Shown here in pieces: positions 13,314-54,693 of a stretch of 64,000 bases of DNA. The translations under genes and the position numbers were made by a program. The notes under the pieces were generated by a model. The model made no database searches and was not told the DNA's origin. It saw only the letters and a program-made list of their open reading frames with translations. Positions within the stretch are counted from its first letter, which is position 1. Each line of letters starts with the position of its first letter. Source of the stretch: an uncultured Acidobacteriota bacterium (lineage in GTDB: Bacteria > Acidobacteriota > Vicinamibacteria > Vicinamibacterales > UBA2999); contig CAVYZT010000009.1 in assembly GCA_963773045.1 (NCBI GenBank), positions 257,857 through 321,856 of the forward strand, given 5' to 3'.

Positions 13314-13409
13314 TTACCGGGTGAAGAACGTCTGCGCGAGATATAGGGCTGAAAGCGTCACGACCCACACGATCAGGACGCGGACGTAGCTGCGAGTCAT
13401 GTCGCTCAT
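13314..13409 (-). CDS. possible 31-aa single-TM micro-protein
   Basis: Hand translation gives MSDMTRSYVRVLIVWVVTLSALYLAQTFFTR*. The ATG overlaps the TGA of the upstream lyase gene (ATGA). Confidence 0.3.
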   Translation of the reverse strand: MSDMTRSYVRVLIVWVVTLSALYLAQTFFTR

Positions 13410-14860: not shown

Positions 14861-14877
14861 CTCTAGGAGTATATAGT

Positions 14878-15031
14878 CCGGGATCCGGCAACCGGGATCC
14901 GGCAACCGGGATCCGGCAACCGGGATCCGCAACCGGAATCCGCAACCGGAATCCGCAACCGGAATCAGGCAACCGATTGCGATCGAAGCTCGTCCGCTGC
15001 CGGATGCCGGCTGCCGGATGCCGGTTCCCGG
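14878..15031. repeat. Tandem arrays (ccgggatccggcaa x3, ccggaatccgcaa x3) plus an inverted gccggatgccgg array
   Basis: Read directly from the sequence. It fills the divergent intergenic region between the lyase (-) and the acylase (+). Confidence 0.9.
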
Positions 15032-15046
15032 AACTGGGAGAATGAC

Positions 15047-24959: not shown

Positions 24960-25124
24960 TGCTTTTGTCCCTTGACTCTAAGCTTACGACGTTCTATTTA
25001 CGCTCATTACAAGGGACGGATAGCTCTCAGCAGGTGTGACTGACCTGATTTTGGTGATGAACGTCATGATGGTATCGCGTGATCGCGCGGTGCTTTTTCA
25101 GCTTCTGGAGGGGGGAGGGCTCGA

Positions 25125-29215: not shown

Positions 29216-32200
29216 ATGCGCCCGCGTTTTCCTCTGATCGTAGGGTTTGTTGGTGTACTTGCGTTCTCCTCCACTGCCTTCGCACAAAGAACCTCGGGTG
29301 ACATCAGCGGTACCGTGACCGACGGCACCGGCGGGGTCCTGCCGGGTGCCACCGTCACCGCGGTGTGTACCTGACACGAGTCTCACTCGGACCGCAGTGA
29401 CCGACACTCAAGGCGGATTCCGCTTGTCGGAACTTCCCCTTTGTCTGTATCGCGTCACGGCCGAGCTGGCCGGGTTCAAGACCGTCACCCGCGACGCGCA
29501 GGTGTTCGCCAACGGGATGGCCAAGGCGGACTTCAAGCTCGAGGTCGGCGTCCAGACCGAAACGATCACCGTCCAGGGCGTCAGCCCGCTGATCGAGTTC
29601 TCTGACGAGTTGAACAGCCGCATCGACAGCAAGCGGGTCGAAGAGATGCCGCTCAGCGGCCGCGACTTCAACTCGCTGCTCAACATGGTCCCGGGCGTGC
29701 AGCACCGGCCCGGTGGCGGCTTCCAGGGCGTGAACGCCAGCGGCGCACGAACCTCGTCGAACAACTTCATGATCGACGGCATCTCGAACAACGACCGCTA
29801 CTACGGCGACTCGGTGATGAACCAGACGGGCGTCGTCGGCGTGCCTGCCACGCTCGTGCCGATGGACGCCATCGGCGACTTCACCGTGCAGCAGACGCCG
29901 TCGGCCGAGTTCGGCGTCAAGGGTGGCGCAGCGATCAATATCGTCATGAAGAGCGGCGGCAACACGCCGCATGGAACCGGGTATTACTTCCGGCATGACG
30001 ACTGGACCGACTCGCCGAACTTTTTCGTGAAGCGCGCGGCGGAGGCGGCCGGCACGTCTGCCGATCCGACGCCGACGAAGAACCAGCAGTACGGCGGCAC
30101 CTTCGGCGGGCCGATTCGCAAGGACAAGACGTTCTTCTTCGGCTACTACGAGGGCCAGCGGCTGGCCGTCACCTCACCGTATGTCGTTCACGTGCCGACA
30201 CAGGGGCAGATCGCCGAAGCGCGCGCGCGAATCGCGGCCGCAGGCATGCAGGTGAATCCGATCGGCGAGAACTTGATCAAATATTACCCGACCGATCCGA
30301 CCGGCAACATCAACGTGAACGCGCCGAACGTGTCGAACATGAACACGTTCTCCGTGAAGATCGATCACAACCTCAACGCCAACAACCTGATCAACGGCCG
30401 CGTGTTCTACGGGAAGAACTTTCAGTCGGCCCCGGCCGGCAACAGCGGCGAGATCGTGCCGCCGAACGGTCCCATTGACATGTTCAACTCGGTGACCGAC
30501 CCGACCATCGCTTCACTGGCCGGACTCGTCTGGAACTCGACGCTCTCGAACAGCACGCTGCTCGAGACCCGCATCGGGTGGAACCTCTTCTCACAGACGA
30601 TCGAGCCGAACAACAAGATCGATCCGATGAGCCTCGGCATCAACACTGGTCCGCTCGATCCGGAAGACCTGGGCGTCCCCGGCGTCACGACGCCATTCGG
30701 ACACATCGGCGGCGTCGGCGGCTACCCGATCACCACCAAGCCGACAACGACGACGCAGATTTCCACGGCGCTGACGCAGACTCGTGGATCGCACACCTAC
30801 AAAGTCGGCGCGGCGTGGGACTACGCCTACAACCGCAGTGTCAGGAACCAGGCGCGCACGACGCTGACCGCCAACGGCAGCAGCAGCCGTGACGTGGACT
30901 CGGTGGTAGGCCTGCTGCTCGGCCGGTTCGAGAACGCGGCGCGATCGTTCGGCCAGACCGAGCGGCACATGAGCCAGTCGTCGATCGGCGTGTTCATCAA
31001 TGACGATTGGAAGGTCACCGCGCGTCTGACTCTGAGCGGCGGCATTCGCTACGAAGTGTTCTCGCCGGTCAGCGAGCAAGACGAGCTGGCGACCAACTTC
31101 TTCCCCGACAAGGGGCTCGTGCAGCTCGGCAACGGCATCGACAAGCTGTACAACGCCGACACGAACAACTTCGGGCCGCGCGCCGGCCTGGCGTGGGACG
31201 TCATGGGTGACGGCAAGACCAGCGTCAGGGCGGGCTACGCGCTCACCTACGACTCGGCACAAATCGGCGTCGTGCATCCGGGACTGTTCTCGACGCCGAC
31301 GCTCGGCGTCTTCCGCGTGTCGTTTGCGCAGTCGCCGCGATTCGCGCCCGACAACCCGTTGGCGACGTGCCTCGACCCGAACAACTCAGCCGCAGGCGGC
31401 GACTACATCTGCTTGCAGCCGGGAGTGCCCATCTTCGGCAGTTCGCCGACCGGCGCGCCGCCATTCAACATTTTCCAGGTGCCCGACGACTTTCAGTTGG
31501 GGCGGTATCACTACTTTCACACGACGGTTCAACGCCAGATTGGCGAGAGAAACTCTGTCACCGTGTCGTATGTCGGTTCACGAGGACAGGGCCTGGTGTG
31601 GCGGAAGGAGACCAACGCGCCGCCACTCGGGTCGCCGACCACGAGCCCGGACCTGTTGAGGCCGTACCGATCGACGTTCCCGCAATATCGCAGCATCGTC
31701 GCGTACACCAACGACGGCCAATCCTGGTACGACAGCCTTCAGCTCTCGTTCCGGCAGAACGCGTGGCATGGCATCAACACGCAGTACAGCTACACACTGT
31801 CGAATTGCACCGACTACAACTCGGGCAACCGTGACGCGGCCAACGCCCAGTCGGCCAACCCCTACGACCCGGCCGCCAATGAAGGCCCTTGCGACTTCGA
31901 CATCCGCCACAACTTCAGTGCGGGCGGCAGCTACGAAATTCCCGGCGCGTCGATGGGTGGCGGGCCGTTGCAGATTGGCGTGGCGTTCTCGGCGGTTTCG
32001 GGCCGGCCGTTCACTCCTGGCCAAGGCACGACCGATCTGTCAGGCCAGGGGACCGGCGTGATGCGCGCCAACTGCCTCGCTGAGCCGACCTACAACTACG
32101 ACCTCGACTATCTCTTCCCCAACCCGACGACCAGCCGATCGGCGATCACCAATGCGTCGCAGGCATTTGCCAACCCCCCTGCGGGAACGCTCGGCACCTG

Positions 32201-32471
32201 TGGACGCAACAGCGGCCGTCGGCCGGGATTCTCGGCGCTCGACTTGAACATCCTGAAGGAGTTCAAGCTGCGCGGCAACACGCGGATTCAGGCGCGCTGG
32301 GAGATCTTCAACGTCACCAATCGTGTGAACCTCGGCACGTTCCTGAGCACGAGCACACGCAGCGGCGTCTTTGGACAAATCGGGTCGACGCCGGACGTCG
32401 ATCGCGGCAACGCCGTCATCGGCTCGGGCGGTCCGCGCGCGATGCAGTGGGCGCTTAAAGTTCTCTTCTAA
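29216..32471 (+). CDS. CarboxypepD_reg / TonB-dependent-receptor-like outer-membrane protein (one apparent frameshift near 29372)
   Basis: ATG 29216 is preceded by aaggggatgg. MRPRFPLIVGFVGVLAFSSTAFAQRTSGDISGTVTDGTGGVLPGATVTAVCT stops at 29374. The +1 frame continues PDTSLTRTAVTDTQGGFRLSELP..YRVTAELAGF and runs to 32471. An extra t at 29372 explains the break. Paralogous to the upstream pseudogene. Confidence 0.8.
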
Positions 32472-40816: not shown

Positions 40817-41941
40817 CTGCGGTTTCTTCTGCGCGGCGGCCGTCCGCTCCTGTTGTCGAGCGCCGCTCAAGACGTTGACGAGGCCGTAGTTGCCTTCGTG
40901 ACAGGCGTACTCGTAGACCTGCTCACCTGGCGGCATCGTGTTGAACGCCAGCTCACCAGTGAACGGAGCGACGAAGGTGGATGGATCTTCCACCGTGAAC
41001 CGGTAGCTGATTGTGTTGGCATCGACTCGCCGCAGCCGTTCGGTCACCTTCAGGTTCTCCCACGAGTTGCGGAAGCCGTGCAGCGGATGGAAGTTCGTCG
41101 TCTCGATGACCAGCGTGTCACCGTCCCACCGTCCGATCGAGTCGCCGAACCATTGGCGGAAGCTCGATGGAGGATGCTGACCGCCGATCCGGACGATGCG
41201 CGCGTCGTGCACCATCTCCGTCATGATCATCACCGTGTCGGCGGTCTGCACGATCGTGTAGTTGTTATTGTAAAAGTAGTTCGGCAGCATCGGCGGCCCG
41301 GCGTTGTTGCCAAACGAGGTGATGCAGCGCTCCCCGAGCGGGCGCAGTTCCGGATGGTCGAACTCGCCGCCCTGGGTCTTGCGGGCGGCCCCCGCCTGCG
41401 CCATTCGAGCGCGCGCCTCTGCGGTGTACACCGGCACCCTGCCATCCGCCGGGTCGATCACGATCGAACTTCTCGGCAGCCCATCGACCCGCAGGACGCG
41501 CTCGCCGGGATCGATCCAGAAGGAGTTGTACCCGCCGACGAGGCCGGCGCCCCCTTGCCACACACGTTCGATGAACGTGGGCTCGGCGTTCGGGCTCTTC
41601 CTGGCCTCGCCACCGACAGGTGGAGCGGCTCGATTCGGATCACTTGGCTGTTCGCGGGCCTCCAACGCCCGCCGGGTGCTCTGTTCCTGCGCGATCGCGG
41701 CGTCGTCGGTCAGCACGAGCGGCTGGTTTGCGCCAAGACGTTCGAACGGTGTGATCGTCGCGTTGGTCCAATTGCCTTGGAAGTCAGGACGTCCATCCGG
41801 CGTGCGGGGGATCGCCGCCGGCTTGGCCGCCGGTTTCGCGGCAGCGGGCTTTTGCGGTGGGGGCGCGGTCGCCGGGGCCTGCGCGCCGGCGGTCGCCAGA
41901 GCGAACACCGCGGCCGTGAGCGTGACACCCAGGGTTCTCAT
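40814..41941 (-). CDS. secreted protein of unknown function (paralogue B)
   Basis: ATG 41941 overlaps the upstream TGA (ATGA). Signal peptide MRTLGVTLTAAVFALATAGAQA, a Pro/Ala/Lys linker, and the shared core ..DSIGRWDGDTLVIETTNF..LKVTERLRRVD.NTISYRFTVEDPSTF. Confidence 0.6.
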   Translation of the reverse strand: MRTLGVTLTAAVFALATAGAQAPATAPPPQKPAAAKPAAKPAAIPRTPDGRPDFQGNWTNATITPFERLGANQPLVLTDDAAIAQEQSTRRALEAREQPSDPNRAAPPVGGEARKSPNAEPTFIERVWQGGAGLVGGYNSFWIDPGERVLRVDGLPRSSIVIDPADGRVPVYTAEARARMAQAGAARKTQGGEFDHPELRPLGERCITSFGNNAGPPMLPNYFYNNNYTIVQTADTVMIMTEMVHDARIVRIGGQHPPSSFRQWFGDSIGRWDGDTLVIETTNFHPLHGFRNSWENLKVTERLRRVDANTISYRFTVEDPSTFVAPFTGELAFNTMPPGEQVYEYACHEGNYGLVNVLSGARQQERTAAAQKKPQ

Positions 41942-42801
41942 TTCAGCGGCTCCTTCCGCAAATGACCGTACATCAACTCGGTGACGAACTCGACGCACTT
42001 GAACTGACCCAGCCGCGCGCCCTTCTCGACCCGGCGATAGAGCGGCAGGCTCATCTTCCAGGGTCGGGTGAAGGTCTGCGGGTCCTCGATCGTCGCCTCG
42101 TACTGAATGTGATCGGAGTCGGTCATCGTGTAGCGTTCGGTGACCTTCAGGTCCGAGCTGTGGTGATTGCCGGCCCGATCGAACCAGCTTCCGTCGGTGA
42201 ACCCGGTGACGTCGATCACGAAAATGTCGCCTTCCCAGCGGCCCACCGATTGACCCATCCAGCTGTCGAGCGGCGCCGGGCCCGGGTCCTTCAGCATGAC
42301 GTTGCGGGTGGCGCCCGCATACTCGTAGGCGATGAAGAACGACGTCGCGCTCTGCAGGATCTGAAACGGAAACGGCATGTAGGTGGCGCGCGGCACGCCC
42401 GGCAGATAGCACTTGATCTCGGGATCGAGCGTCAGCCAGTTCGCCTGATTCTCCTGCTTCTTCTTCAACGCCTCGGGCTTGTACGGAAGCTCATCGCCCT
42501 CGACGATCCCGAGTCCCGAGGGCACCGATCCCGCCGCACCAAAAGCCAGCACTTCTTTGGCGGGAACTGGAACGACAGGGCCCGGACGCATCGCGAGCGC
42601 CGCCTTTGCGCTGTGCGCTTGAATATCCCAGTTGGCGGTGTTGATCGCCTGCCAGATGCCATTCAAGTTGGGCTTGCCGTTGAGCCGCGGAATGTTGGAC
42701 GTGCGAGTCTGGCCGGTCAACGGTGACAGCGACACCAGTGCGAAGGCACCGGCGGCCACACCAGCCACGATCGAAGTCTGCAGAACCGACACCCAGCGCA
42801 T
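41938..42801 (-). CDS. secreted protein of unknown function (paralogue A)
   Basis: 287 aa with a signal/TM segment. It shares QSVGRWEGDIFVIDVTGF..DLKVTERYTMTDSDHIQYEATIEDPQTF with the downstream gene. Confidence 0.6.
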   Translation of the reverse strand: MRWVSVLQTSIVAGVAAGAFALVSLSPLTGQTRTSNIPRLNGKPNLNGIWQAINTANWDIQAHSAKAALAMRPGPVVPVPAKEVLAFGAAGSVPSGLGIVEGDELPYKPEALKKKQENQANWLTLDPEIKCYLPGVPRATYMPFPFQILQSATSFFIAYEYAGATRNVMLKDPGPAPLDSWMGQSVGRWEGDIFVIDVTGFTDGSWFDRAGNHHSSDLKVTERYTMTDSDHIQYEATIEDPQTFTRPWKMSLPLYRRVEKGARLGQFKCVEFVTELMYGHLRKEPLK

Positions 42802-42848
42802 GTGGAAACCTCTCTGAAGGGCGGATTATACGGCGAGCGAAGCTGGAT

Positions 42849-45704
42849 CTAGGATCCGGGAAGTTTCTCGAAGTCCCGGCGCGCTTGGACGAGCATCGGC
42901 ACATCCGGGTCGGCGTCCTTCCACAGATCGAAGAACTGCTGGTAGATCTTCCGCGCCTCACTCGTTTGTCCAAGCGCCGCGCGCGCTCTGGCAAGCGAGA
43001 CCATCGCCGAGGCCTTCGATGCGCCCAGACCGCTGCGCGGCTCCTTCTGAACCACCCATTCGAGACCCTTGGACGCTTCGAGCCAATGTTGGAGCCGGAC
43101 CTGGGCAATGCACCAGACGGCCACCTGCTGACCGTGAGCGGTGTCGAAGGTCACCGGCTCGAGGAGCGTCGCGGCCTCGGCCGGTTTGGCCTCGGCGAGC
43201 GCCAGCAACGACTCCAGGAAGCGCGCCGCTTCGAGACGCCGAGCCGGATTGGCAATCGACTTCTTCGCTTCTTCGACGGCGCCGATGAAGATCGCCTTGG
43301 CGCGCGCGCGATCCTGCAGCAGGGCGCTCAGTACCAGGTCTTCGTCGAGAGCGCCCGCCTGCACCAGACCGCCGGTTCGGGCGCGGGTCGCGCGGGCGCT
43401 CGCGACATCCGTCAGTCCCACCAGCGCTTCGTTGATCGCCAGATCCAGGATCCGCTCGCCGATCCGATCGGCGAGGCTGGCCTGCTCCAGGCGGGACTGC
43501 AGCTCGACGATCAGCCGGTCAGCGTCGCTCATCTTTCCGAGATACGTCGCGCCGGCAATCCGAGTCCCCACCATCTGCACTTCGTCGCGGCGGCCATGAA
43601 CCGCCGCCACCTGCGCGTCGGCCAGCGCCGGGTCGCCGGTCACAATCGCGAGCGCATAGAGGCCTGCCCTGGAATTGGTGGAGTCCTGAAGCTTCAGCGC
43701 GGTATCGATCGCCTTGCGCGCATCTTGGTAGCGGCCGGCATCGAAATAGGCGTTCGACAGGTTCTGCCACGCCAGCGGCTGGTCGGCGCCGATCACGACC
43801 GCATGCTCGAGCTCGCGGATCGCTTCCTCGTCTTGTCCCAGGGTGCGCAGCAGTAATCCGAGGTTCACGAGCGACGAGTAATCGTCCGGATAGGTCGCCA
43901 ACAGCACCCGGTATGTTTCGGCGGCCTTGCTGAGGTCCTGGTCCACGGTCGTGTAATAGCGCGCTTCGATGTAGGCGCGTTCGGCGTCGCTCACCTTGCT
44001 TCTGAGCTCGAACGCTTTGCCCGTCATCTTGCGTCCTTCGTCGGACTGCCCCAGGTTGTTGAACACGGTGCCGAGTCGCGCGTAGGCGAGCGCGAACTCG
44101 GGATCGAGCTCGATGGCCTTGCGGAAGAACGGAACCGAGTCGAAGTCGCCGGTCGTCTTGCGCGTCCGGACCCCCTGGCTGTACGCCTTCAGCGCATCCA
44201 GCGATCGCGTCGTCGCTTCTTCGACCGTGGCGTCGTAGCGCTGAATCGACGCCAGCGACTCGCCGAGGTTTCCGCGCAGCGCCGAGACGCCGCTGCCGAG
44301 CGCTTTCAAGACGTTCTCTTTCGAATCCGACTGCACCTGTTGTTCGGCGAGCACGCGGCCGGTGAGACAGTCTTGCGCGTTGAGCGTGACCACGTATGAG
44401 GACCCGAGCATCGCGATCGAGCCGCCGAGCATCGCCTTGGCGGCGACGCGCTGGCAGAGCTCGCGCCCGACGTCACCGGTGAGCGGGGTCATCGGATCGC
44501 GACCCATGAGCCGCAGCGTGGACTGCACCTGCTGATCGGCGACCACAGTCAGAAACGGCGACTGCCGCAGTTGAACGCCCAGCGCCTCGCCCAGGGTGTC
44601 GTCGAACATGGCGTCGCCGGTTCGATTCATCATGGCGGCGAGCACCACCGGATCCTTGGCGGCGAACGCCGGCGTGCTCACCGACCAGTAGAAGAACAGA
44701 CCGCCAACCACCGCGAGGGTCATGAGCGTCACGCCGACGAGCGCCGGCTTGAGCCATGGCCGGGGCTCGCGCTGAACGGCGGCGACACCTGACTGAAGAT
44801 TCGATGCGGCCGCGCCTGGCGCCGCTCCAGTCGGAGTCGCAATCGCCCCGCTCTCTGCCGCCTTCCGCAGGCGCCGAAGCTCGGCACGCAGGTCCGCGGC
44901 GCTCTGGAAGCGCGTGTCGCGATCCTTTTCGAGCGCGCGGGCGATCACGTGATCGAACGCCGGTGGCAAGCCGGGCTCGATTTGCGATGGCGGCACGGGA
45001 GCTTTCGTGAGGATCCCCTCGAAGATCGTCGCCGGCGTCGCCCCAGGGAATGGGAGCGTGCGAGTCGCCATTTCGTACAGCACGATGCCGGCGGAAAACA
45101 GATCGCTGCGCGCATCGATCTCGTGACCACGCGCCTGCTCCGGCGACATGTACGCGATCGTCCCAACCGTCGACCCGACCGTCGTCAGCTGATTCGAGCC
45201 GCCCACGGTCGTCTCGCTCGTGTCACCGCCGGCGCGGCTGAGCTTGGCGATGCCGAAGTCCAGCACCTTCAGCGATCCACGCTTGCTCACGAAGAGATTC
45301 GCCGGCTTGATGTCACGGTGGACGACGCCTTCACCGTGCGCGGCGTCGAGCGCATCGGCCATCTGTTCGCCAAGCCGAAGCACCTCGTCCAGCGACAGCG
45401 GACTCCGATCGATCCGCGCGCGAAGCGACTCGCCGTCGAGCAGCTCCATCACCATGAAGCGCTGATCGTGATGCGCGCCGATGTCAAACAGCGTGCAGAT
45501 GTGAGGGTGGGTCAACGAGGAGATGACTCGAGCTTCGCGAAAGAACCGCTGCGCCGCCTCGGGCGTGACGCCGGAATCGTCGGGCAGAAACTTGATGGCG
45601 ACGCGTCGGCCGAGCCGGGTGTCTTCGGCCTGGTACACGACCCCCATACCACCGGAGCCAAGCCGGGACAGGATCCGATAGTGCGAAACGGTCTCGCCAA
45701 TCAT
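42849..45704 (-). CDS. Ser/Thr protein kinase with a TM segment and a large TPR-repeat C-terminal region
   Basis: ATG 45704. GSGGMGVVYQAED..VAIKFL, HRDIKPANLF, DFGIAK, YMSPEQ. A hydrophobic segment follows, then more than 500 aa of TPR-like repeats. Confidence 0.85.
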   Translation of the reverse strand: MIGETVSHYRILSRLGSGGMGVVYQAEDTRLGRRVAIKFLPDDSGVTPEAAQRFFREARVISSLTHPHICTLFDIGAHHDQRFMVMELLDGESLRARIDRSPLSLDEVLRLGEQMADALDAAHGEGVVHRDIKPANLFVSKRGSLKVLDFGIAKLSRAGGDTSETTVGGSNQLTTVGSTVGTIAYMSPEQARGHEIDARSDLFSAGIVLYEMATRTLPFPGATPATIFEGILTKAPVPPSQIEPGLPPAFDHVIARALEKDRDTRFQSAADLRAELRRLRKAAESGAIATPTGAAPGAAASNLQSGVAAVQREPRPWLKPALVGVTLMTLAVVGGLFFYWSVSTPAFAAKDPVVLAAMMNRTGDAMFDDTLGEALGVQLRQSPFLTVVADQQVQSTLRLMGRDPMTPLTGDVGRELCQRVAAKAMLGGSIAMLGSSYVVTLNAQDCLTGRVLAEQQVQSDSKENVLKALGSGVSALRGNLGESLASIQRYDATVEEATTRSLDALKAYSQGVRTRKTTGDFDSVPFFRKAIELDPEFALAYARLGTVFNNLGQSDEGRKMTGKAFELRSKVSDAERAYIEARYYTTVDQDLSKAAETYRVLLATYPDDYSSLVNLGLLLRTLGQDEEAIRELEHAVVIGADQPLAWQNLSNAYFDAGRYQDARKAIDTALKLQDSTNSRAGLYALAIVTGDPALADAQVAAVHGRRDEVQMVGTRIAGATYLGKMSDADRLIVELQSRLEQASLADRIGERILDLAINEALVGLTDVASARATRARTGGLVQAGALDEDLVLSALLQDRARAKAIFIGAVEEAKKSIANPARRLEAARFLESLLALAEAKPAEAATLLEPVTFDTAHGQQVAVWCIAQVRLQHWLEASKGLEWVVQKEPRSGLGASKASAMVSLARARAALGQTSEARKIYQQFFDLWKDADPDVPMLVQARRDFEKLPGS

Positions 45705-45837
45705 GGGCGCTGGTCGATCAACTTCCGGATCTTCGTCGCGAGCTGGACCGGTGTAAAGGGTTTCTGCAGGAAAGATTTGCGCACGCAAGGACAGCGTAGC
45801 GGGCGGCTACGCAGCGTGGCAAGCGGCGGTCCGCCGG

Positions 45838-47530
45838 CTAGCGCAATCGCGCGAGGCTGATGGCGCGGGCGACCGAGCCAACCAGCTCGTCGAGATCGAT
45901 CGGCTTGGCGAGGTGCCAGTCGTAGCCAGCCTCGATCGCCGCGGCGCGCTCGGGGAGGCTGGCGTAGGCGGTCACGGCAACCGCAGGAACCCGGCCACCT
46001 AAGTCGGCGGGCAGCGTTCTCACCGCCTGGATCAAGGCGTATCCATCCTTGCCGGGCATGGCGATGTCGCAGAAGAGCACATCGAACGATCGATGGCGAA
46101 GCGCGCGCAGCGCCTCCTCGGCCGACCCGGCGGTGACGACGTCTGCGCCTCGTGATTCGAGCATCGCGCGCATCAGATCCCGCGCGTCGGCCTGGTCGTC
46201 GATGACCAGGACGCGGGCAGCCGACAGCTGCATAGGTTGGCTGTCCTGAGCCGGCGAATCCGTTTTGGCCTTCGGCCGCACCGACTTGATCGGCAACTGC
46301 ACGGTGAACGTCGCGCCGTGACCATCACCGAGACTCGCGGCCAGGACGTTGCCGCCATGCGCCTCGGTGACATGCCTGACGATCGCAAGCCCGAGGCCGA
46401 GCCCGCCGTGACTTCGCGCGCTGGTGCTGTCGGCCTGGCGGAACCGCTGGAACATGAGTGGCAAGAAATCCGGGCGAATGCCCTGTCCCGTGTCTTTCAC
46501 GACGATTTCCGCGGTGGATTCACGCGCCCGCAACTCGACTTCGACTTGGCCATCGGCCGGGGTGAATTTGATCGCGTTCGAGAGGAGATTCCAGATGACC
46601 TGCTCCAGGCGCTCGGCATCGCCCTGAACGAGGATGTCGATATCGGACGGCGTCTTGACCACCAGGCGAATGCGTTTGGATTTCGCCGTCAACAGATGCG
46701 TTTCGACCGCGCTGGTGATCACCGACCCCAGATCGACCGCATCCTGCTTGAGCTGGAACTTGTCCGACACGATGCGCGAGATGTCGAGCAGGTCCTCGAC
46801 GAGCTGCGCCTGCGCCTTGGCATTGCGGCGGATGACGTCGATGGCTCGCTGCTGGGCGTCGAGCGACAGGGTTCGCTCGCCCAGCAGGTGGGTCCATCCG
46901 AGGATGGCATGCAACGGCGTTCTCAGCTCGTGCGAGAGCGTGGCGAGGAATTCATCCTTTACGCGGTTCGATTCTTTGAGCAGTTCGTGCGCCGCGGCCA
47001 GCTCGGCCTGATGCTTCTGAGAGGAGAGGTCGGTGAGCAACACGCCGACGCCGCTCGAGTCCTCGAGCGCGCTGAGGGTCAGGTAGACGGGAACGCACGG
47101 TGCCGTCTGCGGCCTGCATGAGAATTTCGCCCTGGCTGGCCGATGCCTGCCCCTCGAGCACGAGGGTGAGGTATTCCGCATGCTGATTGAGCGAGACGAA
47201 ATCGACCAGCGGCGTGCCGATGAGCTTCTCGAGCGAGACGCGCAGCATGGTGGCGAGCTGGCGATTGGCGTAGACAATCGTCCCGTCGGGGCCGAGCATG
47301 GCGGCGCCTTGATGCATCCGTTCGATCAAGACGCGGTACGGACGCTCGGCCCCTTCGAGCGTGTAGATTCGATTGCCGTTCTCGCCGTTGACGACAAACG
47401 CGTCCACCGCGCCCGAACGAATCGCCTCGAGCGTCTCTTGCGCCTCTTCCAGCCGCCGCCGAAGATCCGCGTTCTCGCCTTCGAGATCGTCGGCGGACAT
47501 GCGGGCTCCTGCCGCGGTCCTCCTGGTCAT
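45838..47530 (-). CDS. PAS - HisKA - HATPase - REC hybrid sensor kinase (one apparent frameshift near 47094)
   Basis: The N-terminal coiled-coil plus PAS is in one frame (..RIYTLEGAERPYRVLIERMHQGAAMLGPDGTIVYAN..EILMQAADGT). It continues in another frame (PCVPVYLTLSAL..FLATLSHELRTPL..GGLGLGLAIV..VLVIDDQADARD..DIAMPGKDG). The ATG overlaps the kaiB TGA (ATGA). Confidence 0.8.
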
Positions 47531-47886
47531 CGACCGGCCTCGCCTCGCGGGCGCAGATCCAGGCCGACCAGGACGCGTTCGACGTCGGACAAGTTGCCGA
47601 TCAGGCGGCGCAACGGGAGCGGGAGTTTCTTGACCAAGGTCGGCGCGGCAACGATCTCCTCGTCTCGCGCCGCTTCCGGATGCTGATAGATATCGATGAC
47701 CTCCAGCTCGTAGCGTCCTTGGAGGTACTTCGCGCAGAGCGATTTGAGCGTCTGGATCGCTTCCGACGAACGGGCTGTCATGCCGGTGACGAACAGCCGC
47801 AAGACATAGCGCTCACTGTTGGTCGCGGCAGAAGCCAAGGCCTCTTCAAATTCTTCCGTGCTTGATTTGCCAGGCTTCTTCATCAC
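47527..47886 (-). CDS. kaiB: KaiB-family protein (copy 2)
   Basis: [85 protein letters not shown] is the canonical KaiB pattern. Confidence 0.85.
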
Positions 47887-48218
47887 ACTTCGATCCTCGC
47901 GGGCCGGAGCTGCAACCCGACCAGCACGCGCTCGGTGTCGCGGAGGTCACCCACGATCTTGCGCAGCGGTTCGGGCAGCTTCCGGACCAGCGTAGGAATC
48001 GCGATGATCTGATCGCCCGCGGCCAACTGCGGGTTCACTAAGAGATCGACGATCTCGATCTCGTAGCGGCCGGCCAGATGCTCTTCGCAAAGCCGCTTGA
48101 TGTTGGCGAAGGCGGCAATCGACTTCGGCGTCTGGCCGGCAACATAGAGGCGAAGCTGCCACACCTCACCATTCCCGAGGTCGTCTGGTATCGGGTCTTC
48201 TCGAAGGGCTTCGTTCAT
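47883..48218 (-). CDS. kaiB: KaiB-family protein (copy 1)
   Basis: [89 protein letters not shown] overlaps on both sides. Confidence 0.85.
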
Positions 48219-49972
48219 TTGCGCCCCCTCCGTCCTGTGGTCGTTGCCTGGCCGTCGATTGGCGGGGGGTCCGCGTGGCGGCTGTGAATCATCTGCGACT
48301 GCTCGTCCTGACGCGCCACTTCGCGATCGCGTTCCTGAAGTTCTGAGATTTCCGAGGCTTGTTCCTCTGCTTCGAATTCCCGGCGCAGCGCCGCGATTCG
48401 CGCCTCGTGCGCTTCTCGCCTCCGCCGGCGCTCGCGCTGCACGGCCTCGGCCGCATGTTGCTGCGCGACCCCCGCCGCCTTCTCGCGCGCTTCTTGCACT
48501 ACCCGCGCCGACCCGGTGAGCGCGCCCTCCGGTCCGAGATACACGTCTCGCAGCTCGATGCCCCGGTCGGTCAACAGGAACTCGCGCAATTGATTCGAGT
48601 GCGCCATGCCGCGTGACTTGAGGATGGAAATCTGGCGGTTGCGCTCGCCGGAGGACTCGACGGTCCGCAGCAAGATCCAGGTATCGACGAGCGACGAGAT
48701 GCCAACCTCGGTGGCTTCGAGGACCTGGTTGCCCGACGTCAGATCGGTCAGCAGGACCGTAATCTGGCGCACCTTTAGAAAATCGATCAGGCGGATCAGC
48801 ATGATGCCGGCCTCCCGAGTGGTGCCGGCGTGCAGCAGGCTGCTGATCGGATCGAAGATGACCGCGCGCGTCTCAAAGTCCTGAATACGCCTGAGCACTC
48901 TCGCCAAGTGGGCTTCCAGGCCGTACAGGTTCGGTCGCGTGCTGTGAATCTCGAGGAGTCCCTGGTTCGTCCACCGCTCGAGGTCGAGCCCGATCGAGCG
49001 CATGTTGCGCACGATTTGTCCAGGCGACTCTTCGAGGGCCAGATACAAACAGCGCTCGCCTCGCGCGCACGACGCGTCCGCGAAATGCGCGGCCACGCTG
49101 GTCTTGCCGCTGCCTGCGGTTCCAGAGATCAGGACCGTAGTGCCCCGGTAGTACCCTCCGTCTCCCAGCATCGTGTCGAGACGGGGGACGCCACTGGGGA
49201 CCCGTTCATCGCTGGCGATGTGCGCCAGGCCAAGCGAGGTGATGGGCAGGACGTTGAACCCGGTTTCGTCGATGAGAAACGGGTACTCGTTGGTGCCATG
49301 CGTCGTCCCCCGATACTTCACGATGCGCAGCCGGCGCGTGGAGAGCTGATCGGTCACGCGATGGTCGAGGACGATGACGCAATCCGAGATGTACTCCTCG
49401 AGGCCGTGCCTCGTCAGCAGACCCTCCCCGCGTTCGCCGGTGATCACGGCCGTTACCTGCCGGTCCTTGAGCCAGCGGAACAGTCGACGCAGTTCGGCCC
49501 TCAGGATGGATTCATTGGAGAGACCGGAAAACAACGTCTCGAGAGTGTCGAGCACGACCCGCTTGGCGCCAATCGTGTCGATGGCATGCCCCAGGCGGAC
49601 AAAGAGGCCTTCGAGATCGTACTCACCGGTCTCGTCGATCTCGCTCCGCTCGACCCGGACAAAGTCCACGACCAGCAGCTTGCGATCGATCAAACCGTCG
49701 AGGTCGAACCCCAACGAGCGGACGTTCTGCGTCAGTTCCCGGGCGGACTCTTCGAAGGTCAGCAAGACGCCCGGCTCGCCGTATTCGGTGGCGCCGCGGA
49801 CCAGGAACTCCATCCCCATGAGCGTTTTACCGCACCCGGCGCTGCCACATACCAGCGTCGAGCGGCCGCGGGGAAAACCGCCGAACGTAATCTCATCCAG
49901 CCCGCGTATGCCCGTAGGAGTTTTGGGCAGCTGAGGCTCAGAGTAGGTAGATGGGGGACCGGCCTTGGGCAT
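48215..49972 (-). CDS. kaiC: KaiC-family double-domain ATPase with an extended charged C-terminal tail
   Basis: ATG 49972. [17 protein letters not shown]. Two Walker A motifs (GSAGCGKT and GTAGSGKT). [11 protein letters not shown] lies at the position of the cyanobacterial phosphosite segment. The last ~90 aa are Arg/Glu/Ala-rich ([47 protein letters not shown]). Confidence 0.9.
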
Positions 49973-50118
49973 CTTAGGGTTCTTTCTGTGAGGCAACCTC
50001 AGAAACCGCCTTTCGATGAGTAGTCGGGAAAGTGAAGAAAGCAACAAGCAAGCCATAGTGAAATGCAGGCGGAGTTCTTGGTTCGAAGCGGGATGGGTAG
50101 ATAATTGGAGCCTCCCAA

Positions 50119-50409
50119 ATGGCTGAACACGAGTTGAGCGCCAGCTTCGCTGCGTCTGACGATGTCGTCTCCCGCCGCCTCGACGACATCGTGGTTCTCA
50201 TCCACCTGAAAACCAACCGGATCTTCGAGCTCAACGCGACCGGCGCGCGTCTCTGGGAATTGATCAGCGCTGGAACGGATACCGGCGAGATCCGCGAGAT
50301 CATGCTGAACGAGTTCGACGTGGCGCCAGCTGAGCTGGCCAACGCCATCGCGTCGTTGACCAGGCTGCTCGCCTCAGAGGAACTGATTGCCAAGCGCGAC
50401 GCCGGTTAG
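50119..50409 (+). CDS. PqqD-family RiPP recognition element (lasso B1)
   Basis: 96 aa with ggag 9 nt upstream. ..VVLIHLKTNRIFELNATGARLWELISAGTDTGEIREIMLNEFDV.PAEL..AIASLTRLL is the PqqD/RRE pattern. Confidence 0.8.
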   Translation: MAEHELSASFAASDDVVSRRLDDIVVLIHLKTNRIFELNATGARLWELISAGTDTGEIREIMLNEFDVAPAELANAIASLTRLLASEELIAKRDAG

Positions 50410-52265
50410 CCGCCCTGCGGCCGAGCTCACGTGCCAATGGGTGGCGCGCGTGCCTCTGCGTTCTTCCGGGTCTTCAAGCGGATTCAGCATCACGGGCGAG
50501 CGGGGACGGTTTCTCAGCTCGGTTCAGCGGCACTCGTCGGCCGCGATGTTCAGCGGTCATCTCCACAATCGTCCGGCCCTGATCGCGACACTTGGAGGAC
50601 CCGGAGAGTCGCTCGACGATGCCGAGTTGATGCTGCGCGCGTACGAACGCTGGGGGCAGGACTGTCCTCGCCAGATCCGCGGCATCTTCGCTACCGTGAT
50701 CTGGGACGCGGACCACGCCACGGTGTTTGCGGCCCGCGATCGGATTGGCGTCCATCCGCTGTTCTGGGCGAGTACAGGATCCGATCTTCTGTTCTCGTCG
50801 TCGATCCTCTCGCTGGCTTCTGATCCCCGGGTCTCGCGAGCACCGAATCGCTCCGCGATGGTGGATCACATCAGACACACCTGGGGCGACCACCCGACCG
50901 AGACATTCTTCCAGGCCATCCGTCGCGTCCCTGCCGGTCACGCCTTTGCTGGCTCCTACGGCCAGCTGCGCGAATGGCCCTACTGGCACGTCCTGAAGCC
51001 TGATCGAGAGATCGATTGGATGGCAGACGAGGAGGCCGATCGCTTCGACACGATGCTCGACGAGGCCGTCGAGCGCTGCCTGGAGTTGGGACCGAGCGCG
51101 ATCTTTCTGAGCGGCGGGCTGGATTCGGTGAGCGTCGCCGCCGCGGCGATCGACCTGTCGCGGCGATCGGGACGGCGCGCGCCGCTCGCGTTGTCGTTGG
51201 CGTTTCCACACCCTGAGTGCAATGAAGAAGACGTCCAGCGCGGCGTGGCGTCTGGTCTGGGCATTCCACAACTCATCTATCCGTTCGAGGAAACGGTTCA
51301 ACCCCACGGCTTGATGGAGTCGGCCCTTGCCTTGACGCGGAAGATGGGCGCACCGCTGGAGAACCCTTGGGAGCCGGCGTACCACCGTCTCAGACACGAG
51401 GCGCGTCAGCGTGATTGCCAGGTGATCATGACGGGCAATGGCGGCGACGACTGGCTCACGGTGGATCCGTATTACGTCGCGGATCTTCTGCGCACGTGGA
51501 ATGCCGGTGATCTGATTGAACTGCTGCGCAACTCGTTGCGGTCGGTACGATCTGCCCCGCGTCGCCCACGTCCGCCGCTTGCTGTGGAACTACGGGCTCC
51601 GGCCGTTGCTGTCGCGGCGGTTGTCGCGACTGCTCACGCGAGTGGCGCCTTCGGTCCTGGCCACGCATCGGCGCCACCGGCAAGAGTCGGTGACGCCCGA
51701 TTGGCTCGCGCCGGATCCGGAACTGCGCCGCGAATCGGTTCGCCGATTTGCCGAGGTGGCCGAGCGCATACGGCGGCGGCCGGCGCCAACCGGTCCGTAC
51801 GGGTTCTTCTCGATGGAAGGCCCAACCGGATTCATCCGGCCGTCGATGGCCATGGAGTTCGAAGAGCAATTCGAGTTCAGCCGGATGACGCAGACCCTCG
51901 AGATGGCTCCGTATTGGGATGCGGACCTGGTCGAGTTCCTCCATCGCATCCCGCCAAGAATCCTGGACAAGGGCGGGCGCGCTAAAGGAATGGTTCGCGA
52001 GACGGTGGCCAGACGCTTCCCACGGCTGGGCTTCGACCGCCAACGCAAGGTGTCAGCGGCAAACTATTTCGTCTCGGTGCTCTCCACTGCAGGCGCGGCA
52101 GCTTGGCAACGCTCGGGCGGCGCCAAAGAGTTGGCGCGATTAGGAGTGGTTGGCCCAGGCGTGAGCGAGTTCGCTCGCCAGGCCTTCGAGTCTCGAGACA
52201 CGGCGCAAATGCCCCAGATCTTGGATATCATGCACTTGGAAGAATGGGTGCGGGCACATGTCTGA
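50387..52265 (+). CDS. asparagine-synthetase-like lasso cyclase (C protein), one apparent frameshift near 51544
   Basis: RIGVHPLFWA, AIFLSGGLDSVSVAAAA (PP-loop SGGxDS) and GNGGDDW are in frame 1. The reading continues as YDLPRVAHVRRLLWNYGLRP...PYWDADLVEFLHRIPP in the 51516..52265 ORF. The exact start is uncertain. Confidence 0.8.
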
Positions 52266-52291
52266 TCCCGAGGCCGGCCAGAGGAGGCCAG

Positions 52292-52468
52292 ATGCAAAGA
52301 GATTCGGAGCGGAAACATTCGACCGAGCGCACCGAGAAAAAACCGTGGGAGACTCCGAAGCTGTCGTACGTCGGCGCGGTCGAGGACGTGGTCCAGCAGG
52401 GCGACGGCAAGCTCACAGCGGTTGCGGCCGATCCTGGTGAGAGCAAGAAGACGAAGCCTTCAGGCTGA
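52292..52468 (+). CDS. lasso-peptide precursor (A peptide), 58 aa
   Basis: ATG 52292 is preceded by gaggagg. MQRDSERKHSTERTEKKPWETPKLSYVGAVEDVVQQGDGKLTAVAADPGESKKTKPSG. W-x-x-P-x-L-x3-G matches the conserved lasso leader motif YxxPxLxxxG. The gene sits between the cyclase and kinase genes. Confidence 0.7.
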   Translation: MQRDSERKHSTERTEKKPWETPKLSYVGAVEDVVQQGDGKLTAVAADPGESKKTKPSG

Positions 52469-52474
52469 GCACGT

Positions 52475-53422
52475 TTGACGCCTTTCGCGGCGTCACCGCC
52501 GCCTTCCATGCTTTCGCTCGCCATCCTCCAGGGAGAGGACCAGCATCCAACCCAACTGGATCCATCCGCGCCAGGCGTAAACATCTGGCGAAGCCCGGAC
52601 GGGCAGCCGGTGGCGTTCTCTTCCACCAACGGCGATCGGCGCTGCCTCGATTGGCCGGGCGTCGCGAGCTTTGAATTCTCCGCCGGCTCCGCTCACATCA
52701 CGGCCATCCCCTATCGGCCGGCCCGCCCCGACCTCATCACCGAAGCGTTTCATCACAGCGTCTTGCCGCTGGCACTGCAGTCGCTCGGCCGTGAGGCCAT
52801 ACACGCCAGCGGTGTCCTGACTTCGCAGGGCGTGGTCGGTTTCTGCGGCCACGCTGAAGTCGGCAAGTCCACCATGGCGTACGCGTTGAGCCAACGCGGA
52901 TATGCCGCATGGTCGGACGATGCAGTGGTGTTTGAGATCGTTCGGCAACAGCCGCGTTCGCTGCGCCTGCCCTTCGAGTTCAGGTTGAGGCCACCTTCCG
53001 CCGCGCATTTCGGAACTCCAGCGCGACTGCAGCCCGAGACTGTGGCAGACGTGAACCAGAGAGCGCCGATCGCCGCCTTGTGCGTCCTGGCTCGCCAGAC
53101 CCCAGAGTCGGAGACGGGTGTCTCGATTGCCAGACTCGAAGGGCGTGCCGCGCTCACGACGGTGCTGGGACACGCGCTCTGCTTCGACTGGCACGATGGT
53201 GCGCGCAAGCGGCAGTTGCTCGTCAATTATCTGGCCCTGGCGTCCTCGATTCGAGTCTTCGACGTGCGCGTGCAGCCTTCGCTCGCCCGCCTCTCACACG
53301 TGGTGGACGCCATCGTCGATCGCGTGGTCGCCCCGTTGGCGGCGCGCGGTTCGCTCTCGCACCAGGTCGCGGTAGTTGGGCCGGGACCGGAACCAGCCGG
53401 CATAGGCAGTCTTCGGCGCTGA
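52475..53422 (+). CDS. HPr-kinase-like serine kinase (lasso tailoring kinase candidate)
   Basis: IHASGVLTSQGVVGFCGHAEVGKSTMAYALSQRGYAAWSDDAVVFE parallels the HprK P-loop segment (..G.GVL..G.SG.GKS..AL.L..RG..LV.DD). TTG start in the track; an alternative ATG lies at 52508. Confidence 0.7.
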   Translation: MTPFAASPPPSMLSLAILQGEDQHPTQLDPSAPGVNIWRSPDGQPVAFSSTNGDRRCLDWPGVASFEFSAGSAHITAIPYRPARPDLITEAFHHSVLPLALQSLGREAIHASGVLTSQGVVGFCGHAEVGKSTMAYALSQRGYAAWSDDAVVFEIVRQQPRSLRLPFEFRLRPPSAAHFGTPARLQPETVADVNQRAPIAALCVLARQTPESETGVSIARLEGRAALTTVLGHALCFDWHDGARKRQLLVNYLALASSIRVFDVRVQPSLARLSHVVDAIVDRVVAPLAARGSLSHQVAVVGPGPEPAGIGSLRR

Positions 53423-53998
53423 GCCGACGACGTCGGTCACGCGGTGTCGCAGACCGGGATCGATGCGAAACATCAGGGCGTCGCCGATGCCGAGATTTGC
53501 GATCTCACAGAACACGTGATCGGAATCGGCCTGACGCATTTGCAGCAACCCGCCGCTGTAGGGTGTCGCGCTCAAGTTGATGCTCAACGCGATCATTCGA
53601 TCGCCACCGACATCCGAGTGCCACGAGTCGTAGTGGCCTTGCCCGGGCACCATCCGATACACCCGGCCGACAAACGATCCGATTGGTCCGCAGCCGGTGA
53701 GGGTGCGAACGATCGCGAAAAACTCCGGATCGTTGGCCAGCAGTTCGAGGACTCCGGTTGCCAGTCCGTGCCGCGCGCAAAGCTCCGACCCGATGCCTTC
53801 GTGTTCGTAATCGGAGAAGCTGGTCTGCTCGAACGCCGTCAACACCGCGGTGACAAGCTCGGGCGCCAGCAGGCTGGGCAGCAGGATGCAGTGTCCCTGC
53901 TCGAATCGCTGGCGCGCCTGAGTCAGGGCTGAGGCATCCGGAACGGCGACGCCCCGGTGGCGAAGCTGAACGATCATGCGGGCCTTCTCTGGAATCAT
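53294..53998 (-). CDS. 2OG-Fe(II) oxygenase-superfamily protein
   Basis: 234 aa. WHSDVGGD (HxD) plus the distal LRHRV His within a beta-rich core. It lies downstream of the B2 gene on the same strand. Confidence 0.6.
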   Translation of the reverse strand: MIPEKARMIVQLRHRGVAVPDASALTQARQRFEQGHCILLPSLLAPELVTAVLTAFEQTSFSDYEHEGIGSELCARHGLATGVLELLANDPEFFAIVRTLTGCGPIGSFVGRVYRMVPGQGHYDSWHSDVGGDRMIALSINLSATPYSGGLLQMRQADSDHVFCEIANLGIGDALMFRIDPGLRHRVTDVVGSAPKTAYAGWFRSRPNYRDLVRERTARRQRGDHAIDDGVHHV

Positions 53999-54132
53999 TT
54001 ACGCATTTGACGCCCTTGGATCAGGAGTCCCGGTGACGGGCACCGGCCGCGCGCCAGTGGTGACAGGCCTGATCGGGGCGCTCGAGACATTCGACACGTG
54101 GGGTTGACGCGAGCATTCCCGGCGACACAACG

Positions 54133-54576
54133 CTATTGGGCGATGGCGCGATCGAATGCCGCGAAGCGTTCACGGACATCGTCGTCGTCGTTGAGCACGA
54201 TGCCGCCGTGTTCCACCCACGCGTGCGCCTCGATCTCCGTGCTGGCCTTGCGCACGCCGAATCGGAGCACCGCGTTAATGCCCTGGCGCCGCAACAACCA
54301 CCAGAGAACGACCGAATGCGGCAGGCAGCTGACGCGAAACAACCCTCGTTCCGCTGCCAGCCGCACCAATCGGGTCGTCGCGTGCACTCGTTCGAGTGGG
54401 GAGGACGCGCCGTCCGACGGACGCGGCAGCGTGGTCGAGATCAACGACTGGAGGCGCGCAAAACTGAGCAAGCGAAGCGCGCCGGCCGTGAGCGGCAGCA
54501 GAGCCAGCGCCTGAAGAAATATCCATCTGTCGCGCGGTGACAGTTGGTCGAATGCGCGCCAGCGGTTGAGCCGCAC
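54133..54576 (-). CDS. lasso peptide biosynthesis B2 protein (transglutaminase-like leader peptidase)
   Basis: 147 aa. C..H..D arrangement: RVSCLPHSVVLWWLLRRQGI..LRFGV..EAHAWVEHGGIVLNDD. Confidence 0.85.
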   Translation of the reverse strand: MRLNRWRAFDQLSPRDRWIFLQALALLPLTAGALRLLSFARLQSLISTTLPRPSDGASSPLERVHATTRLVRLAAERGLFRVSCLPHSVVLWWLLRRQGINAVLRFGVRKASTEIEAHAWVEHGGIVLNDDDDVRERFAAFDRAIAQ

Positions 54577-54693
54577 CCGGAAAAGCTACCACGGCATCCG
54601 GGATCCGGCACGCGGCAGACGGCAGATGACAGACGGCCGCTGCGACATCATGCCGCAGGGCGCATCGGAAGTCGCCGACCTAGGATTGAATCC

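Follow-up and report, generated by a model that had tools for sequence, protein, structure and literature searches.

The question raised by this locus is whether a kai gene cluster with two kaiB genes and no kaiA, found in an uncultured Acidobacteriota bacterium, encodes a timer and, if so, of which kind and with what part for the second KaiB. The cluster lies in a stretch of 64,000 nucleotides of the assembly GCA_963773045.1 (contig CAVYZT010000009.1, positions 257,857 to 321,856), hereafter the window, in which position 1 is the first letter. The list of open reading frames (ORFs) and their Pfam matches show four co-directional genes on the minus strand between 45838 and 49972—that is, kaiC, a proximal kaiB (kaiB-I), a distal kaiB (kaiB-II), and a gene for a PAS-containing sensor kinase. 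We read the locus, with a probability of roughly 0.7, as a KaiC2-class, KaiA-independent KaiBC phospho-timer in a widespread two-KaiB form, with the PAS hybrid histidine kinase as its signaling partner. This reading is favored because KaiC belongs to the KaiC2 class, KaiB-I resembles the KaiB of Rhodobacter sphaeroides (KaiB-RS), a kaiC-kaiB-PAS/histidine kinase operon has been published, and the gene order is conserved among related loci.

The kaiC gene (49972–48215, minus strand) encodes a protein of 585 residues with two tandem RecA-like domains, as reflected in two matches of the Pfam KaiC profile (PF06745, E 9e-112). The CI domain contains the Walker A motif GSAGCGKT at residues 43–50 (window 49846–49823) and the catalytic Glu pair E74/E75 (within 49759–49745), and the CII domain contains GTAGSGKT at residues 284–291 (49123–49100) and the pair E314/E315 (within 49036–49025). 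Across 20 homologues these positions are invariant, except for the second, fifth, and eighth residues of Walker A, which vary. The predicted phosphosites form a Ser-Ser pair, S426/S427, in the motif ISSLVDTW (48700–48677); the pair is invariant in the KaiC alignment (A2) and is aligned with that in the motif GLSSLMD of R. sphaeroides KaiC (KaiC-RS). The description of KaiC in the first-pass annotation of this DNA, with both Walker A motifs and a Ser-Ser pair, was thus accurate.

The C-terminal region of KaiC is informative with respect to its class. The protein is 585 residues long versus 519 in the KaiC chains of Synechococcus elongatus, and its C-terminal tail (residues 487–585, window 48514–48218) is conserved across the 20 homologues. 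The best match in the Protein Data Bank is R. sphaeroides KaiC (8dba, E 4e-196), to which residues 16–550 were aligned with the tail included, residues 487–550 corresponding to the 8dba tail. Together, a C-terminal tail of about 50 residues and a pair of phosphosites of the Ser-Ser type define the kaiC2 clade; in KaiC-RS this tail forms a coiled coil that joins two hexamers and makes KaiA unnecessary (Pitsawong et al., 2023; PMC10076222). Because the tail and the Ser-Ser pair are both present and 8dba is the best match, the window KaiC is classed by its sequence as a KaiC2 protein of the R. sphaeroides type. Furthermore, it passes the NCBIfam model NF006799 (717.9 bits against a cut-off of 408) and fails the cyanobacterial-type model TIGR02655 (336 bits against 546). 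The score of 656 bits against R. sphaeroides KaiC, versus about 333 bits (approximately 1e-98) against cyanobacterial KaiC, places the protein far nearer to an hourglass KaiC, in agreement with the KaiA-less KaiBC-type system that had been proposed. No KaiA domain was found in the approximately 60 ORFs scanned across the 64-kb window, as would be expected if, as asserted earlier, a KaiA-like gene is absent.

The two genes that follow on the minus strand are kaiB-I (48218–47883; 111 residues; Pfam KaiB E 4e-26) and kaiB-II (47883/47886–47527; Pfam KaiB E 9e-24), the latter encoding 118 residues if started from the ATG at 47883 or 119 residues if started from the GTG at 47886. Both proteins lie well above the gathering cut-off of 27 bits for PF07689 (90.9 bits for KaiB-I and 83.4 bits for KaiB-II) and under the cut-off of 145.3 bits for TIGR02654 (89.7 and 87.6 bits, respectively); by these profiles they are classed as KaiB-family proteins, and as no equivalogs of clock KaiB. 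The best structural match of KaiB-I is KaiB-RS in complex with KaiC (8fwj_M, 112 bits), and KaiB-II is about equally near to cyanobacterial KaiB and to KaiB-RS. Both keep the conserved C-terminal half, A-PTL-x-K-LP-P-x-R-x-IG-x-LS-x-ERVL-GL.

Homologous loci are abundant. More than 8000 proteins match the window KaiC at E <= 1e-50, typically with 65–70% identity, and many of them have been named KaiC by JGI or NCBI; a scan of one genome per species returned at least 598 KaiC loci, whose best matches are at most 71% identical. According to the record titles, Acidobacteriota account for 28 of the best 80 of these at least 598 loci, the remainder of the 80 belonging to Chloroflexota, Nitrospirota, Planctomycetota, Verrucomicrobiota, Bacteroidota, Proteobacteria, Desulfobacterota-type lineages, and Gemmatimonadota, with two bins labelled archaeal also included. 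Acidobacteriota are thus among the commonest carriers, and the earlier view that a KaiBC timer would be notable in an acidobacterium does not hold. Genes of the window such as those for CarboxypepD_reg/OMP_b-brl_4 receptors and Ser/Thr kinase-TPR proteins make an acidobacterial origin plausible. Gene order was mapped in 81 species-level loci using homologues of KaiB, PAS, the kinase core, and REC. At least one kaiB follows kaiC in 79 of the 81 loci, two in tandem in 42 loci from many phyla and a single one in 37. The same N-terminal PAS module comes next after kaiB in 71 loci, and of the ten without it, seven run into the edge of their contig. Matches to two KaiBs, PAS, HisKA-HATPase, and REC on one strand, as in the window, were found in 13 loci, though not necessarily within a single gene in each.

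With tandem kaiB genes in 42 of 81 loci, the PAS module in 71 of 81, and a one-KaiB operon already in print, the architecture can no longer be called less commonly described, as it had been; it is common, and its one-KaiB form is already known. According to the first-pass annotation, its reading would fall if the operon were a common, already characterised architecture in this phylum; common it is, characterised it is not. The arrangement kaiC-kaiB-kaiB-PAS was also observed in bins labelled as an archaeon (L060), Candidatus Methanoperedens (L065), and Candidatus Nealsonbacteria (L077), whose KaiC proteins are approximately 60% identical to bacterial ones, which would point to either lateral transfer or mis-binning.

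Among the systems studied so far, KaiBC of R. sphaeroides (8DBA, 8FWI, 8FWJ; PMC10076222) is closest to that of the window, with a KaiC2-class KaiC, a Ser-Ser pair, a tail of about 50 residues, no KaiA (for the window, as far as the scanned ORFs show), the gene order kaiC, kaiB, and then a PAS kinase, and, in KaiB-RS, the nearest solved relative of KaiB-I. It was shown to run as an hourglass under the control of KaiB and of the ratio of ATP to ADP (PMC10076222); the closest characterised relative is therefore an hourglass and not a free-running clock. Unlike in R. sphaeroides, the window has KaiB-II between kaiB and the kinase gene, its kinase is a HisKA hybrid with REC, and its host is apparently a non-phototrophic soil bacterium. 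The operon kaiC-kaiB-PAS/histidine kinase has been published for both R. sphaeroides and Rhodopseudomonas palustris (PMC4794148). In the latter, where it acts as a proto-circadian timer, it is a KaiA-less three-gene operon with a single predicted promoter, likewise comprising kaiC, kaiB, and a PAS histidine kinase gene, but with one kaiB, and its adaptive role was demonstrated in a phototroph, for nitrogen fixation under alternating light and dark (Ma et al., 2016; PMC4794148). A functional study of a two-KaiB system was not found in the open-access literature, in which the sole mention found is a remark on "kaiCBB" in Thiodictyon syntrophicum Cad16T (THSYN_19820-19830; PMC5944118). There, kaiC is likewise followed by two kaiB genes, and the cluster adjoins a diguanylate cyclase gene; the remark is one sentence in a genome report that leaves the KaiBs unanalysed (PMC5944118), and kaiCBB, known here from the text of that report alone, is assumed to represent the same KaiB-I/KaiB-II pair. 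The cyanobacterial KaiABC system, with its SasA and CikA outputs, shares homologous KaiC and KaiB and a histidine kinase that reads the KaiC/KaiB state. Unlike that system, the window has no KaiA domain in its scanned ORFs, a Ser-Ser rather than a Ser-Thr pair, and a C-terminal KaiC tail; its kinase, unlike SasA, has no KaiB-like domain, and it would not be expected to sustain an oscillation by itself. The docking of SasA to KaiC by way of a KaiB-like domain provides a precedent for a KaiB-fold adaptor.

The fourth gene, the presumed output of the system, extends on the minus strand from 47530 to 45838 and is interrupted by one extra base, considered below. Its 5′ part (codons 1–145, 47530–47095) encodes an N-terminal cap (residues ~23–60) and the first two-thirds of PAS, and its 3′ part (47093–45838), in a shifted frame, encodes the end of PAS followed by HisKA (1.6e-17), HATPase_c (7.9e-29), and Response_reg (6.6e-24). 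The repaired protein contains an H-box, SHELRTPLH, with His200 (46935–46909), N and G boxes, and a REC domain with the acceptor Asp488 in FCDIAMPGKDG (46074–46042) and the conserved Lys in HLAKP. With a HisKA domain bearing its His, HATPase_c, and a receiver bearing its Asp, it has the sequence hallmarks of a hybrid histidine kinase.

The input end of this kinase is its most conserved part. Across 54 loci, residues ~23–100, comprising the cap and the first half of PAS, form the best-conserved block, with the consensus L..RLEEAEETLRAIR.GEVDA.VV....G..VYTL.GA..PYR.L.E.M..GA. In about 0.8 Mb of locus sequence, the cap-PAS module was seen hardly anywhere except beside kaiB, and it is the obvious candidate for a reader of the KaiBC state. 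Behind it the outputs vary: HisKA-HATPase-REC in the window, identified by a Pfam scan, and, as read from sequence motifs in the other loci, HisKA_3-like in Terriglobia (L003), HWE-like in the Methanoperedens bin (L065), GGDEF-EAL-like in a Rhodoferax bin (L026), and HD-GYP-like in a Chloroflexia bin (L050). This variety suggests that one KaiBC-reading input module may have been wired to many outputs.

All biochemical steps of the proposed system, timekeeping itself, and the role of KaiB-II are put forward here by homology; a coiled-coil dodecamer, fast KaiA-free autophosphorylation, and a KaiB-stimulated ATPase in particular would follow solely from homology to 8dba and 8fwj. KaiC would form hexamers, which the long C-terminal tail would pair through a coiled coil; this pairing would leave the A-loops exposed and so allow autophosphorylation at S426/S427 without KaiA while ATP is plentiful. 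KaiB-I would bind phosphorylated KaiC in its post-hydrolysis state, at the CI ring, and, as the ATP:ADP ratio falls, would speed both ATP hydrolysis and dephosphorylation, resulting in an hourglass that is reset by the environment rather than in a free-running clock. The kinase would relay the KaiBC state to downstream partners by phosphotransfer from His200 to Asp488.

A physiologically different reading of much the same machinery is that the module serves as a KaiC-based switch for the energy or stress state and not as a day-timer, KaiC phosphorylation reporting the ATP:ADP ratio or redox state and the PAS kinase adjusting stress resistance or biofilm-type behavior. An energy or stress role has been proposed for KaiBC of non-photosynthetic bacteria, and KaiBC of Legionella is reportedly linked to stress response rather than rhythm. 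The gene set of the window is of a heterotroph type, with peptidases, amidases, a sulfatase, and TonB-type receptors and nothing phototrophic, and the very diverse outputs on the conserved PAS module are such as would be expected for a general signaling input. In R. sphaeroides, too, it is the ATP:ADP ratio that drives the system (PMC10076222). However, such a switch is mechanistically almost the same as the hourglass and differs from it in the physiological reading, the fitness benefit of R. palustris KaiC is specific to day-night cycles (PMC4794148), and strong daily cycles occur in soil surface layers. An energy switch is accordingly a serious but rather unlikely alternative to the phospho-timer.

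Whether the kinase is functional depends on the nature of the extra base. The stretch 47530–45838 measures 1693 nucleotides, no multiple of 3, and is not one ORF: PAS is encoded in a frame running from 47530 to its stop at 46952, and HisKA-HATPase-REC in another running from 47277 to 45838. The Pfam PAS_4/PAS match in the 5′ part correspondingly reaches only profile position ~76–87 of 110–113. The window was compared with a relative whose KaiC is 84% identical (L001), which served as the reference for the DNA alignment and for the ratios of nonsynonymous to synonymous substitution rates (dN/dS), and with a second relative, the contig encoding the KaiC P0004. The alignment GTGC[G]TTCCC against GTGC-TTCCC in L001 places the extra base, a G on the coding strand, at 47094, the sole uncompensated gap in the kai genes between the two. 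The kinase matches that of L001 with 92% identity in frame +1 as far as residue 145, beyond which it matches with 91% identity in frame +2. The PAS-HisKA-HATPase-REC domains of the first-pass annotation are thus present, but its single hybrid kinase ORF is not, the frameshift having been missed.

The extra base is quite probably an assembly error, because the kinases of the relatives are intact (563 residues on the P0004 contig and more than 539 residues in L001), the frame stays open after the shift with low dN/dS (0.09 downstream versus 0.11 upstream), and further genes of the window have disrupted frames as well. Five genes within the 64 kb, on a contig of 336 kb, carry at least seven frame breaks between them, the kinase gene included. 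The other four are a CarboxypepD_reg/OMP_b-brl_4 TonB-type receptor gene (25083–28965; at least three shifts and at least four frame segments), the gene of a PQQ-propeller BamB-like protein (a shift near 36050), a class II aldolase gene (~38590; Pfam profile positions 2–45 and 46–181 in different frames), and a lasso cyclase gene (a shift at ~51544). A real frameshift—that is, a recent pseudogene in an operon losing its signaling arm—would take the sequence as given, extra base included, at its word, and the insertion lies outside any homopolymer. Moreover, the receptor gene, with at least three breaks, looks genuinely decayed and may, given its intact paralogue at 29319–32468, be a real pseudogene; three breaks clustered in one gene fit true decay better than random error and so count against an assembly artefact. 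However, the 1.26 kb downstream of the kinase shift contain no second lesion and have a dN/dS of 0.09, the relatives' kinases are intact, and at least seven breaks in five genes within 64 kb, among them a methionine-salvage aldolase and a biosynthetic cyclase, are excessive for a free-living genome and typical in density of error-prone long-contig assembly. Recent loss of the kinase is therefore unlikely. Programmed ribosomal frameshifting, for which only the overlap of two long ORFs in the right order speaks, can be dismissed with near certainty, the shift not being conserved (the 84% and 80% relatives have a single ORF) and GTG CGT TCC offering no slippery or stop-codon context. Three further candidate frame breaks in the window were rejected, in that 40817–42490/41941–42825 are two separate genes in a relative, 6824–9397/8896–10272 are two different genes, and the lyase-like gene at 13409–15163 is probably intact.

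The one lead of moderate interest in the locus is its second KaiB. KaiB-I and KaiB-II are 48% identical, and the pairs in two-KaiB loci average 44% identity. In all 42 two-KaiB loci, the position-1 KaiB scores higher against KaiB-I than against KaiB-II, and in 41 of the 42 the position-2 KaiB scores higher against KaiB-II. A KaiB phylogeny, which the first-pass annotation had called for, was computed by neighbor joining (NJ) with the 41 position-2 KaiBs long enough for inclusion; all 41 fall into one bipartition (bootstrap 64/100), grouped with cyanobacterial KaiB (4kso) and with five single KaiBs from beta- and zeta-proteobacteria and a cyanobacterium. The opposite side of the bipartition comprises KaiB-RS, the position-1 copies, and the majority of the single KaiBs. 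Because identity within pairs averages just 44%, KaiB-I and KaiB-II are regarded, on these sequence comparisons, as an ancient paralogue pair and not as the product of a recent tandem duplication. The earlier description of two diverged KaiB paralogues in tandem is thus correct with respect to divergence, but a local duplication is at odds with the separate NJ clade of the position-2 copies and its spread over many phyla. When KaiC proteins were clustered by the unweighted pair group method with arithmetic mean (UPGMA), two-KaiB loci appeared on all deep branches, with one-KaiB loci nested (Terriglobia, Betaproteobacteria); this clustering faintly suggests that the pair is ancestral and that KaiB-II was lost repeatedly.

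KaiB-II is further distinguished by an N-terminal extension before the KaiB domain with the motif STEEFEEAL, in which F12 and E13 show little or no variation (alignment A6). An [FY][ED] motif 9–24 residues upstream of β1 is present in 34 of 42 position-2 KaiBs and in only 1 of 42 position-1 and 1 of 37 single KaiBs, and the motif of the position-2 extensions can be written as (S/T)xxF(E/D)xxL-like. The single KaiBs of Terriglobia-type loci (L003–L005, L008–L011, L013–L018, L020, L022, and L081) have an N-terminal motif of their own, approximately PLSLxEI, which differs from the F-E motif and is absent from the KaiB-I of two-KaiB loci. AlphaFold2 (AF2) models of the two KaiBs, with a mean predicted local distance difference test score (pLDDT) of about 61, resemble ground-state KaiB crystals (Foldseek template-modelling score 0.63–0.80, target-normalised), and fold-switched KaiB structures align to these pLDDT ~61 models over approximately 55 N-terminal residues only; STEEFEEAL was modelled, with low confidence, as a helix. 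KaiB-II, and not KaiB-I, weakly matches the NCBIfam "histidine kinase" model NF006800 (25.6 bits against a cut-off of 342), which we take to be the model of SasA; the match is a hint at best.

It might be supposed that KaiB-II is a redundant spare with no distinct role. Both proteins do conserve the C-terminal half and are modelled in the same ground-state-like fold (pLDDT ~61), and 37 of the 81 loci manage without KaiB-II. Against this stand the retention of order and subfamily identity in 41–42 of 42 loci across many phyla, the ancient divergence implied by the 44% average identity, and the N-terminal motif of KaiB-II together with purifying selection on its gene (dN/dS against L001 of 0.12, compared with 0.08 for kaiB-I). 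Natural fusions, in which both domains are retained, also speak against redundancy, and a mere spare is improbable. In-frame KaiB-I::KaiB-II fusion proteins of 202–204 residues are encoded between kaiC and the PAS kinase gene in loci from independent ENA and JGI assemblies (L082, 5001–5609; L083, 3766–4374; L084, 5001–5615). The short-linker fusions P0122, P0241, P0242, and P0123 are 73–87% identical and well supported, P0122 and P0123 being found on three contigs each, within kaiC-kaiBB-PAS-kinase loci of independent ENA and JGI samples, and about ten more intact two-domain KaiB proteins have longer linkers. The kinases of the fusion loci have HisKA_3 and HisKA domains according to precomputed Pfam matches. 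When aligned with MAFFT, every single-domain KaiB fell on the first domain of the fusion, so that no usable paired alignment was obtained. Because natural fusions exist, they argue that the two KaiBs would act in one complex.

KaiB-II would accordingly work in the same complex as KaiB-I, its STEEFEEAL helix most likely making a further contact, for instance with the conserved cap and PAS of the kinase. A stronger and more tentative proposal, which we consider possible though unlikely, is that the ancestral KaiC2 system had KaiB-II as a third core component, sitting with KaiB-I on KaiC and coupling the cap/PAS of the effector through its N-terminal helix.

Several points weigh against the phospho-timer and the part assigned to KaiB-II in it. 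We know of no experiment on any member of this group outside Alphaproteobacteria, and the host is apparently a non-phototroph, which bears on what would be timed. Both KaiBs fall under the cut-off of 110 bits for NF006798 (KaiB-I 93.3, KaiB-II 90.9), the KaiB-II clade has a bootstrap of 64% in NJ, and the AF2 models are of low confidence (pLDDT 60.8 and 61.5 with the subfamily alignments A5 and A6, respectively) and fail to tell the two paralogues apart. In a search of KaiC for residues that differ consistently between two-KaiB and one-KaiB loci, none emerged, and a contact of KaiC specific to KaiB-II thus leaves no signal of co-evolution. Some of the listed KaiB "fusions" are garbled and probably frameshift artefacts, and no HPt or response-regulator partner of the kinase was identified.

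The gene boundaries are compatible with a single operon. The stop and start codons share an ATGA at the kaiC/kaiB-I junction (48218–48215) and at the kaiB-II/kinase junction (47530–47527). A third ATGA had been claimed at the kaiB-I/kaiB-II junction, which in fact reads GTGATG, giving a GTGA overlap if kaiB-II starts from the GTG at 47886 or a one-nucleotide TGATG overlap if it starts from the ATG at 47883, the start picked by gene callers on an independent contig. The KaiC start is the same in an identical protein, P0001, from an NCBI contig of 336 kb. Short stop/start overlaps are the commonest type of junction between co-directional bacterial genes; those found here are compatible with the translational coupling that had been asserted, and are no proof of it. 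Purifying selection acts on each of the four genes (dN/dS 0.08–0.15 against L001). The divergent intergenic region of 146 nucleotides between kaiC and the PqqD gene of a lasso-peptide cluster (49973–50118) presumably serves the operon as its promoter region; it yielded no sigma-70-like site, terminator-like matches were at background level, and no Rfam family matched anywhere in the window.

Fifty nucleotides downstream of the histidine kinase gene, on the same strand, begins a gene for a Ser/Thr protein kinase of 979 residues with TPR repeats (42849–45788, minus strand; Pfam Pkinase 5e-48 plus TPRs), which could be co-transcribed with the kai operon; its functional link to the kai genes is uncertain. 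The neighbor is kept after the histidine kinase gene on the P0004-encoding contig, with 80% identity, and beyond it on that contig lie two unannotated genes corresponding to window 40817–42825. Directly upstream of kaiC, in the divergent orientation, lies the lasso-peptide gene cluster (50119–54585), comprising on the plus strand the genes for a PqqD-type chaperone (50119–50409), the Asn-synthase-like lasso cyclase (50387–52265, frame-broken near 51544), a candidate lasso precursor of 58 residues with no family match (52292–52468), and an HprK-related kinase-like protein with a weak match only (52475–53422), and on the minus strand that for a B2 protease (54136–54585; NF033537, 87 bits against a cut-off of 33). 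The cluster is also present in L001; on the P0004-encoding contig, a Transglut_core3 gene is found upstream of kaiC.

Taken alone, the locus adds little: it is an ordinary representative of the very common, largely uncharacterised two-KaiB variant of a known system, and its family counts annotated metagenomic members by the thousand. About half of the sampled KaiC2-class loci, however, encode two different KaiBs whose order is constant and which are in some cases fused, and biochemistry has so far been confined to one-KaiB systems; the second KaiB, the fusions, and the conserved effector module thus represent a modest but genuine lead. If KaiB-II is indeed a third component, it would correspond, as a separate protein, to the KaiB-like domain by which SasA docks, and it may also alter the dynamics of the timer. 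The alphaproteobacterial KaiBC systems studied to date would then be secondarily reduced, and most KaiC2 systems of soil bacteria, and apparently some of archaea, would be three-protein machines. Should KaiB-II act as an adaptor or modulator, models of how the pre-cyanobacterial Kai timer signals and evolved would need revising, and it would offer a handle on whether non-phototrophic soil bacteria keep time.

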